A stretch of DNA of 32,849 nt from the IMG/VR virus record IMGVR_UViG_2778261588_000008, positions 1-32,849 of that record; one strand, 5' to 3'. Positions 15,674 through 16,719 of this stretch are shown piece after piece. Source of the DNA: a virus (taxonomy: Duplodnaviria; Heunggongvirae; Uroviricota; Caudoviricetes). The stretch's first letter is position 1; each line of letters starts with the position of its first letter. A model generated the notes under the pieces. It was not told the origin of the DNA. It worked only from the letters and a program-made list of their open reading frames with translations, and did no database searches. Position numbers and translations under genes: made by a program.

Positions 15674-15890
15674 TTCAGTGATGATATAAGTTGTATATTT
15701 CTGATACAGATGTATACACATATTTAAAACTGAACACCAAATATATTTTTGATGTCTGAAAAACTGTCGTTAGTATTCTGACTGGTCCGGAAGACGGTTA
15801 TTTTTGTGTTCACAGGGGCGTTACTATCGTCTGAAGGACCAGTGCTGGCTTTCCTGGTAATTCGTGTGATTCCGGAAGCCAGTACAGTAT

Positions 15891-15965
15891 GCGGGTATCG
15901 TATAATGGCTATTACCTCAGCCTTCCAAGCTGATGATGCGGGTTCGATTCCCGCTACCCGCTCCA
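15891..15965 (+). tRNA. tRNA-Gly (anticodon UCC), glyT-like
   Basis: 75 nt ending CCA; 7-bp acceptor stem GCGGGTA/TACCCGC, anticodon stem TCAGC/GCTGA with loop CTTCCAA (anticodon TCC), T-arm GCGGG-TTCGATT-CCCGC. Matches E. coli glyT as recalled except a compensatory acceptor-stem pair change (C-G to T-A). Confidence 0.85.
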
Positions 15966-16330
15966 GCATTTGAAACAAGCCTTATTGTATTGCGGCACTG
16001 GCGTATTTTTTATTACGTGGGAGCAGGTTGTTTTGAAAAAGCATTTTGTTCTCTGGCTATGATTTGAGGCCAGGTGTAGCCTCAGTGCTGATTTTTTTAC
16101 GACAGCAGAATGGTGCATTATCGGTGGAGATTTTGTATTTCCTGGCAGGGTCGGTGATGCATCATTCTGGTGTTGTAAATCGCACCAAAGAGGCGCACCT
16201 CAGTGCGAGGGTGGTTTAAAGAGTCGGTTTAGCGGGAAACCACAGTATCCATACAGCACGGAATACTTCGGGAGGCACCCGACGCCTCGGTTTAATAACA
16301 ATTAAAAAATTCATCCCTTGCATTGACCAA

Positions 16331-16353
16331 CCGCCATATCTGGCGGTTTTTTT
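16331..16353 (+). terminator. intrinsic terminator in the tRNA-to-lysis non-coding region
   Basis: CCGCCA-TATC-TGGCGG hairpin followed by T7. Confidence 0.6.
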
Positions 16354-16679
16354 ATTCCTTTCTCAGGACGAAAAAAGACACGAGCATCCAGGAATACTCG
16401 TGGGACAACGTCCTTTGGATAGCAATTTGCGAGAGGGTGAAAAGTAGCGCGGTCGTCGGATTAAGACCGCGGGACAAAGTCCATGAAGAATAATAAGTAT
16501 TGGCCCCCTTCCGGGGACATGTTCATACTACTAAGCTTCAGAAGTGGTTTAAATCCTCAAATTAACCTTAATTTCCGATAAGTCTTATTTCATTTCTTTG
16601 CGCCACATCTGGCGCGCATCAAATAACGCCACGCAAAGAGCATCTGCGGATGCCGGTGCTTTTGACGGGGTGTTTTTAC

Positions 16680-16701
16680 GGGCCGCTGGTGGCCCTTTTT
16701 T
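16680..16701 (+). terminator. terminator/attenuator-like hairpin immediately upstream of the lysis operon
   Basis: GGGCC-GCTGGT-GGCCC hairpin then TTTTTTATTT, ending 19 nt before the first lysis-gene ATG. Confidence 0.45.
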
Positions 16702-16719
16702 ATTTACAGGAGAAAAAGT

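Follow-up and report, generated by a model that had tools for sequence, protein, structure and literature searches.

A structured RNA family and a candidate convergent small RNA in the non-coding spacer between tRNA-Gly(UCC) and the lysis genes of an Escherichia coli lambdoid prophage

The window analyzed here, the whole 32,849-nucleotide (nt) stretch of IMG/VR record IMGVR_UViG_2778261588_000008, is an Escherichia coli lambdoid prophage of the phiP27/Shiga toxin (Stx)-like type, and our subject is the interval in its late operon that begins with a glyT-like tRNA-Gly(UCC) gene and continues as a spacer (15966-16719) up to the lysis genes. We propose that this interval is probably non-coding cargo in the moron/toxin slot of the late operon, made up of the tRNA, a structured non-coding RNA (ncRNA-A), a small RNA (sRNA-B), and a holin leader. 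The spacer is a mosaic of three non-coding modules (A, B, and C) (Table 1). On comparative sequence evidence, ncRNA-A is well supported as one new structured RNA family, and sRNA-B is a good sRNA candidate, convergent and on the minus strand. The original prediction for this DNA had described the spacer as hairpin rich and had offered two ways of reading it, as the late promoter region with a 6S-like leader or as a structured small RNA. Every hairpin that it listed was located close to where it had been placed, and its second reading is strongly supported by the covariation outlined below.

The case for ncRNA-A is built on 58 distinct core sequences, 60 to 100% identical to the window and drawn from viral, metagenomic, and genomic records. 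RNAalifold, run on these sequences, predicts the hairpin P1, the five-way junction (P2, P2a, and P3 to P5), and the intrinsic terminator T1; the four hairpins of the junction are adjacent to one another, with linkers of 0 to 2 nt. Across the alignment, 97.8% of the pair cells are paired versus 41 to 57% when the partners are slid by 1 to 3 columns, and double changes occur in 18 of the 56 pairs versus 3 to 6 with partners slid. The observed value was reached by 0 of 500 shuffles on all five measures. P1 has changes on both sides in 10 of its 25 pairs while 96.6% of its cells remain paired, and the stem of T1 is kept across the 58 sequences as its loops vary. In the variable 5' domain, all 15 of the diverse homologues compared retain the closing stem, which shows one double change; the hairpins in the interior of this domain were identified by eye only. 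A covariance check of whether the hairpins are conserved, suggested along with the original prediction, finds the pairs of ncRNA-A both kept and covarying.

The same alignment also assigns the RNA to a strand. Because G-U cells far exceed A-C cells (390 versus 19), ncRNA-A is placed on the plus strand, where 97.8% of the cells pair compared with 86.3% on the minus strand, and the folding z-score of 15966-16353 is -6.76 on the plus strand and -2.34 on the minus strand. A covariance model of the junction domain, R1, scores 119.5 bits in the window and 50 to 110 bits in relatives. There is also a "short class" of relatives, in which P1 is retained and the junction is swapped for other sequence.

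ncRNA-A is linked to tRNA arrays. Among the 106 copies with enough upstream sequence to be counted, a same-strand tRNA ends 107 to 134 nt (median, 129 nt) ahead of P1 in 84; most often this is Gly-UCC (69 copies), followed by Lys-UUU (7 copies) and Arg-UCU (4 copies). Read most simply, ncRNA-A would be the 3' trailer of a prophage tRNA transcription unit, with T1 as the terminator of that unit. Two side observations touch on this linkage. Some loci have two five-way-junction copies flanking a tRNA-Thr/Gly pair (L016, 2690-2801 and 3461-3569; L032, 2263-2374 and 3034-3140), which suggests tandem units of tRNA array plus ncRNA, comparable to the duplicated SerU-LTIIb region. In addition, ARAGORN makes odd tRNA-like calls (Tyr-AUA, Val-AAC, and a "stop" UUA) a few hundred nucleotides downstream of ncRNA-A (L122, 1129-1210; L125, 795-876; L118, 3036-3117; L171, 156-233), and these may be pseudo-tRNAs or tRNA-like elements.

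Module B is a candidate for an RNA gene on the other strand. The hairpins at 16365-16520 had been read earlier as part of one plus-strand leader; they belong instead to the minus strand, where folding is better (the folding z-score of 16365-16560 is -4.10 there versus -0.77 on the plus strand). A promoter (TTTAAA, 17 nt, and TAGTAT or TAATAT) is conserved in 13 distinct variants of the module. The stem of hairpin 1 covaries among them (CCCC/GGGG, CUCC/GGAG, and CUCUC/GAGAG), hairpin 2 shows U-A to C-G exchanges, the single-stranded stretch CUUAUUAUUCUUCAUGG is conserved, and double changes are found in 4 of 17 pairs. In the window, the terminator stem is followed by UCUUUUUU. Many relatives have a run of seven U residues (U7) directly after hairpin 2, so a short form of ~80 nt is predicted, and the form in the window can run to ~148 nt. 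sRNA-B has the generic anatomy of an Hfq-type sRNA, namely, a promoter, a U-tract terminator, and a conserved single-stranded stretch; of this anatomy, ncRNA-A has a terminator and an A/U-rich tail, and a clear promoter was not found for it. T1 and the terminator of sRNA-B face each other ~25 nt apart. By kind, sRNA-B is a candidate for a new prophage moron-slot sRNA.

For module C, we limit our claim to its hairpins and the terminator T2; a long-range pairing proposed there by RNAalifold was rejected as implausible, with almost no covariation. T2 ends 6 nt before the ribosome binding site of the holin gene, it remains with the spacer where another holin follows (683R6), and it is conserved in phiP27 too. 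Counting across the wider region of 13900-17200, terminator-like sites number 15 versus 4.1 +/- 2.0 in shuffles, and such hairpins are well above chance.

Table 1. Coordinates of the interval, its RNA elements, and neighboring late-operon features in the window
Feature	Position	Strand	Basis or remark
DnaB gene	10548-11939		gene order of window
Q antiterminator gene, PF06530 type	12127-12540
KwaB-like cassette	12562-13973	minus
tR'/StxS-like segment of late operon	14077-14155	plus	homology to Stx-phage segment
RNase E-type GUAUU (DNA GTATT)	14088-14092	plus	within tR'/StxS-like segment
Intrinsic terminator of tR'/StxS-like segment	14133-14155	plus	terminator scan
Small TrmB-like open reading frame	14280-14476
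N6/N4 DNA methyltransferase gene	14627-15673
Two hairpins in place of relatives' tRNA-Thr/Arg	15781-15887	plus	H1, 15781-15843; H2, 15844-15886
tRNA-Gly(UCC), glyT-like	15891-15965	plus	ARAGORN, Rfam, K-12 glyT alignment
Module A	15966-16353	plus	ncRNA-A
ncRNA-A 5' domain	15966-16095	plus	variable multi-hairpin region
5' domain closing stem GGCACUG/CAGUGCU	15994-16000/16083-16089	plus
U7 run after closing stem	16092-16098	plus
P1	16096-16124/16151-16179	plus	25 pairs, conserved apical region; RNAalifold
P2	16190-16195/16283-16288	plus	closes five-way junction; RNAalifold
P2a	16198-16210	plus	junction hairpin
P3	16211-16243	plus	junction hairpin
P4	16244-16267	plus	junction hairpin
P5	16268-16282	plus	junction hairpin
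A/U-rich linker	16289-16328	plus	variable, ~40 nt
Intrinsic terminator T1	16329-16353	plus	terminator scan
Module B	16354 to ~16596		sRNA-B on minus strand
AGGACG/CGTCCT stem	16365-16370/16409-16414		outer of nested pair
CACGAG/CTCGTG stem	16379-16384/16397-16402		inside AGGACG/CGTCCT
CGCGGTC/GACCGCG stem	16448-16454/16465-16471
sRNA-B (candidate)	~16518 to 16371, promoter from 16553	minus	fold, promoter, terminator, covariation
sRNA-B promoter	-35 TTTAAA, 16553-16548; -10 TAGTAT, 16530-16525	minus	start near 16518
sRNA-B hairpin 1	16518-16503	minus
sRNA-B GGAC/GUCC	16482-16472	minus
sRNA-B hairpin 2	16471-16448	minus
sRNA-B long-form terminator	stem 16402-16379, U run to 16371	minus	terminator scan
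Module C	~16597-16719	plus	holin leader
GCGCCA-CATC-TGGCGC hairpin	16600-16615
Module C hairpin	~16641-16668	plus
Terminator T2	16680-16701	plus	terminator scan
Holin ribosome binding site AGGAG	16708-16712	plus
Two holin genes and GH108 endolysin gene	from 16720 onward		directly after tRNA/spacer interval

By anatomy and precedent, the modules look like regulatory or structured RNAs expressed in lysogens, together with terminators that would shield the lysis genes. From the observed structures, strands, and gene positions, we infer transcription, processing, action in trans, and an insulator role as follows. ncRNA-A would be co-transcribed with the tRNA or tRNAs ahead of it, would be freed by tRNA processing, and would accumulate as a stable structured RNA. 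It could then act in trans via its conserved loops and/or the A/U-rich tail next to its terminator, by binding a protein or another RNA. sRNA-B would be transcribed convergently from its own promoter, in forms of ~80 and ~148 nt. In this model, T1 and T2 would halt any transcription without Q modification before the lysis genes, and Q-modified polymerase arriving from upstream of tR' (14133-14155) would read through all of the terminators.

Several points weigh against this proposal. Both ncRNA-A and sRNA-B are RNAs predicted from sequence. The P1 apical loop, together with the P2a/P3 and P5 5' segments, was set by the patterns used for retrieval, and so the invariance of these segments is partly an ascertainment effect; in the members derived by BLAST (L116 to L119), loops vary and stems covary. 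The homologues are all from Escherichia-type prophages or plasmids, and some of the covariation counts are therefore inherited, dependent events. Module B has few divergent members, with the 13 variants and 4 covarying pairs given above, and module C is conserved yet shows almost no covariation. No tRNA is detectable in the 400 nt upstream of 22 of the 106 ncRNA-A copies. Finally, promoter-like matches for ncRNA-A are weak (TTGATG, 16 nt, and TAGTAT at 15749-15776; TTGAAA, 19 nt, and TATGAT at 16033-16063), and none passed a stricter scan.

Can the modules be explained without any function in trans? They might be purely cis-acting, as RNase III/E processing sites, 3' protective structures, and stacked terminators that serve to mature the tRNAs of the array and to keep the lysis cassette insulated. 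We regard this explanation as unlikely, if by no means far-fetched. ncRNA-A follows the tRNA array at a fixed distance, the U7 run and A/U-rich linkers flank its helices, P1 is a long and near-perfect duplex of the type that is an RNase III substrate, T1 and T2 are strong terminators placed just ahead of lethal lysis genes, and the promoter scan found no independent consensus promoter; all of these features are what processing and insulation in cis would lead one to expect. On the other hand, sequence conservation in the loops of the five-way junction goes well past the needs of a passive stem, plasmid copies with no lysis genes behind them still retain the junction, a terminator alone suffices for insulation, and sRNA-B comes with a conserved promoter of its own, on the other strand. 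We therefore favor non-coding cargo, with RNAs that would act in trans, over modules that serve the operon only in cis.

A narrower alternative concerns what ncRNA-A does, namely, that it is the enterobacterial counterpart of ROOL and GOLLD and is a device aimed at a protein or at tRNA, as opposed to an sRNA that acts by base pairing; we judge this to be improbable. ROOL RNAs are ~580 nt long, and to our knowledge neither ROOL nor GOLLD has been reported in Enterobacteria. Both are prophage-encoded RNAs, often near tRNA islands, with a complex conserved fold and no associated protein gene, and many GOLLD members exceed 800 nt (PMC12286853). ncRNA-A resembles them in following prophage tRNA arrays (in the 84 of 106 copies noted above), whereas they are far larger than ncRNA-A, which has a core of ~260 nt, reaches at most 390 nt, and has no Rfam match. 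ROOL/GOLLD are the systems closest in concept to ncRNA-A, which is unrelated to them in sequence and much smaller. If ncRNA-A were their counterpart, one possibility is that it forms a decoy or scaffold protecting or delivering phage tRNAs for A-ending codons (Gly-UCC, Lys-UUU, and Arg-UCU), and such a decoy or scaffold might counter host anticodon nucleases or other defenses. The helices of the junction follow one another as in a class II tRNA: the closing stem and a linker of 2 nt come first, then an arm of 4 bp, a long arm, an arm of variable length, and an arm of 5 bp, and the last of these passes directly into the closing stem again. The five-way junction goes unrecognized by the tRNA covariance model.

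The trailer position assigned to ncRNA-A within the non-coding cargo has a further precedent. 3'ETS-leuZ, the trailer of the glyW-cysT-leuZ operon, is said to have been described by Lalaouna and colleagues in 2015 and reportedly sponges the sRNAs RyhB and RybB. As proposed for ncRNA-A, it is a functional RNA from the 3' trailer of a tRNA operon that ends at the intrinsic terminator of that operon; in contrast, it is ~50 nt long and chromosomal, while ncRNA-A is several-fold longer and highly structured, and its trailer origin is the presumed one set out above.

The closest parallels in layout are other prophage sRNAs. Convergent sRNA genes lie in the moron slot downstream of the late promoter PR' in lambdoid prophages of enterohemorrhagic E. 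coli (EHEC), with AgvB/EcOnc01, AsxR/EcOnc02, and EcOnc27 as examples (PMC4104026; Tree et al. 2014). The window shares with them both the slot, which has Q/PR' plus cargo on one side and the lysis genes on the other, and the presence of two convergent RNA genes with facing intrinsic terminators. AgvB and AsxR are 51 to 60 nt long with a conserved 3' 42 nt; ncRNA-A differs in being ~260 to 390 nt long with a multi-helix junction. The Pas sRNAs of enteropathogenic E. coli (EPEC), PasA, PasC, and PasD1/2 (PMC8550237; bioRxiv 10.64898/2026.05.13.724894), are likewise prophage borne, adjoin the holin/lysozyme operon, and have a 3' stem-loop with a U tract, and PasA and PasC are opposite in strand to the holin, as is sRNA-B. 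At the level of sequence, the searches made found no similarity to these RNAs. The AgvB and AsxR models (RF02702 and RF02703) have no match up to an E value of 10 in 15600-16800, and none of 17 EcOnc Northern probes (EcOnc01 to EcOnc03 included) matches the window or the modules, which is a partial test of the 63 EcOnc loci. PasA, PasC, and PasD sequences, taken from strain E2348/69 at the published coordinates, give only chance-level BLAST matches to the window, R1 has no match in the Pas loci (L005 to L007), and STnc100, which is related to PasD, reaches 14.7 bits where the gathering score is 47. sRNA-B has the layout of the convergent sRNAs of EHEC and EPEC prophages with an unrelated sequence. 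A scan of the spacer and tRNA with Rfam, at the gathering score and at an E value of up to 10, matched only the tRNA; the Rfam/Infernal comparison proposed earlier thus recovered the tRNA and no known family for the spacer RNAs. A literature search with conserved sequence strings found nothing.

A third explanation is that the spacer consists of decayed or tiny protein-coding genes, which is highly improbable. The claim that ~750 base pairs carry no open reading frame (ORF) of at least 60 amino acids (aa) is borne out, as the longest in 15966-16719 have 57, 56, and 54 aa; a 139-aa ORF with a TTG start at 16598 shares DNA with the holin gene in another frame and appears to be spurious. RefSeq ORFs are annotated over the region in some genomes, which favors coding, and over ncRNA-A, "hypothetical proteins" are called in L009 (5560-5958; WP_064226585.1, 132 aa), L004 (4290-4607), and L188 (976-1389). 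The 132-aa ORF, annotated as a "hypothetical protein" in ETEC1732, looks spurious and was rejected, as it runs through T1 and has two stops in the window. In the core alignment of ncRNA-A, runs of 1 nt make up 383 of the 401 gap runs, and the strand and frame of the longest open stretch differ among the homologues; because 1-nt gap runs dominate and no frame is conserved, we consider the ncRNA-A region to be non-coding. A second candidate, a 32-aa plus-strand ORF over sRNA-B (16483-16581), is intact in 8 of the 13 module-B variants. As a gene, it was rejected in view of flat counts of variable sites per codon position (16/11/13, with no position bias) and of a ratio of synonymous to nonsynonymous changes (91/255) that matches that of a control frame (103/277). 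Substitutions in the region instead preserve RNA pairs, G-U included.

Could the repeats act as DNA rather than as RNA, for example, as sites of recombination and module exchange or as a protein-binding cruciform? The mosaic itself speaks for this explanation. Breakpoints in alignments and BLAST matches of the relatives fall at 16183, 16298, 16353, 16440, and 16588-16622, mosaic breakpoints between relatives lie at module borders, and the modules are met in other contexts, on plasmids and upstream of tRNAs. Nonetheless, we give it very little credence: the excess of G-U over A-C cells is a strand asymmetry, each module has at its 3' end an intrinsic terminator in the right orientation, and long-range helices (P2 and the closing stem of the 5' domain) covary over at least 90 nt.

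The distribution of the modules is broad among E. coli genomes. The complete interval is 96% identical in one genome, and from 15868 on, it is 87 to 98% identical in ~205 genomes. Module A is found in 427 of 5,426 complete E. coli genomes (~8%) and on 143 E. coli plasmids, mostly conjugative and including pVir68, and module B is found in 297 of the 5,426 genomes; annotation under the matches of these two modules consists of nothing but occasional "hypothetical protein" calls. A scan of genome contigs with the P1 loop pattern returned only E. ruysiae and three chance matches and says little on spread outside Escherichia. The plasmid copies of ncRNA-A are divergent, ~60 to 76% identical to the window (L183 [pVir68], 5001-5209; L116, 2997-3267; L184, 4093-4199), and lie mostly after a tRNA-Lys-like gene and before a DMT transporter gene, with one located on the downstream side of an AIDA-I adhesin gene. 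In appearance they are pieces of prophage that virulence plasmids have picked up, with the RNA structure preserved. At L119 (2787-4697; strain CFIAFB20190172), tRNA-Thr, tRNA-Gly, and ncRNA-A are followed by subtilase-like AB5 genes (B subunit, S8 peptidase, and B subunit), so that ncRNA-A stands immediately upstream of toxin cargo. At L189 (1201-1394), a homologue of module B lies between Q and tRNA-Ile, with a holin of another type, an arrangement which indicates that module B moves independently of module A.

In lambdoid prophages, the stretch from the late promoter to the lysis genes is home to Shiga toxin, LT-II neighbors, subtilase-like toxins, and known virulence-modulating sRNAs, and host regulation can be rewired by RNAs that lysogens make from it. 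The present analysis adds two predicted RNA gene families to this slot; they occur in ~5 to 8% of complete E. coli genomes as well as on IncF virulence plasmids and are so far unannotated or misannotated as hypothetical proteins. For a prophage RNA of enterobacteria, ncRNA-A is unusual in its size and degree of structure, and with its link to phage tRNA arrays, it offers a tractable E. coli model for why phages set ornate RNAs beside tRNAs.

The original prediction placed the spacer in the slot of stx or other cargo, and related prophages agree. Stx2a_1447 has the order Q, reverse cargo, StxS-like/tR' segment, small ORF, methylase, tRNAs, and stx2AB, with stx2AB at the place of our spacer, and other relatives carry TerB/DUF3927 or subtilase-like AB5 toxin genes in the same slot; this comparison of cargo at the position had been proposed as a check. 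The companion suggestion places the late promoter region that depends on Q, PR'/qut/tR' with a 6S-like leader, in the spacer itself, and it fared differently. In Stx phages, the PR'-to-tR' unit yields the sRNA StxS through RNase E cleavage at GU/AUU, and StxS is an Hfq sRNA in lysogens and a non-coding by-product of the late operon (PMC7547250). A segment homologous to StxS is present in the window too, outside the spacer interval, and this homology puts the tR' unit 1.5 kb upstream of the spacer. The region 14050-14160 matches 358 phage records, mostly Stx phages, with 82 to 88% identity. In the cargo-free phage Stx2_EH2201, 16 nt separate the Q stop codon from the start of the StxS-like segment. 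Where relatives have the Q type of the window but different reverse cargo, they share the window segment ending in the terminator at 14133-14155, and relatives with other Q types have different sequence ahead of the same terminator. The spacer, by comparison, is independent of Q type, being common to prophages with a PF06530-type Q, a 229-aa Q, and a DUF1133-type Q. Scans found no sigma-70 consensus promoter site in 13900-17200; PR' was not located, and promoter-like sites in 12100-14200 are at chance level. Thus, even though the spacer lies upstream of the lysis genes and has two strong plus-strand terminators, it is scarcely credible as the late promoter region, given where the tR'/StxS homologue lies, the covariation with Q type of the sequence ahead of its terminator, the lack of a sigma-70 consensus in the spacer, and stx2AB at this position in Stx2a_1447, downstream of PR'/tR'. 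The position of the late terminator, as the StxS-like unit, is hereby corrected for this prophage type, and this prophage, which carries no stx gene, may still make an StxS-like sRNA.

The tRNA at the head of the interval is intact. It had been described as glyT-like with a compensatory change in the acceptor stem, and ARAGORN, Rfam, and alignment to K-12 glyT all agree. ARAGORN calls tRNA-Gly, with the anticodon tcc at position 34, as the sole tRNA in the window, and with the Rfam tRNA model RF00005 it reaches 65.6 bits (gathering score, 29), so that both scanners see an intact cloverleaf over threshold. In the alignment, 73 of 75 positions are identical to glyT; the two differences, C6 to T and G67 to A, turn the C6:G67 pair into U6:A67. 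The acceptor stem is completely paired, and CCA is encoded at the end.

Most relatives have a thrU-identical tRNA-Thr, or a tRNA-Arg, 3 to 6 nt ahead of tRNA-Gly. The window and strain CEA224S have two hairpins, H1 and H2, where these tRNAs stand, and ARAGORN finds no tRNA at 15781-15887. The folding z-score of the leader 15775-15892 is -3.25, and folding upholds the long-range ACTGGTCC/GGACCAGT pairing that had been noticed ahead of the tRNA. The 3' part of the hairpin region aligns to the 3' end of the thrU-like tRNA-Thr/Arg, the differences between the window and L002 in the inner stem of H1 are compensatory, and H2 retains a 7-bp acceptor-like stem and a T-arm-like core. H2 looks like an acceptor/T-arm remnant of a tRNA, and the region as a whole may be a tRNA-derived element perhaps still under selection.

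Farther upstream, the minus-strand cassette at 12562-13973 consists of a KwaB-like gene (PF16162; 294 aa) and a 173-aa partner ORF, and together they look like a Kiwa-type defense cassette. It is placed 21 bp after the Q stop codon, ahead of the StxS-like segment. The slot between Q and that segment holds an NYN-domain gene in L008 and ompC in L009, and other reverse-strand genes occupy the same post-Q slot in the Stx phages Stx2a_1447 and Stx1_499. Late transcription may need to pass antisense through this reverse-strand cargo. In the early region, Rfam matches over the gathering score to isrK (7740-7816, plus strand; 57.7 bits) and, adjoining it, to C4 antisense RNA (7841-7928, plus strand; 82.4 bits) form a P1/P7-type antirepressor control module.

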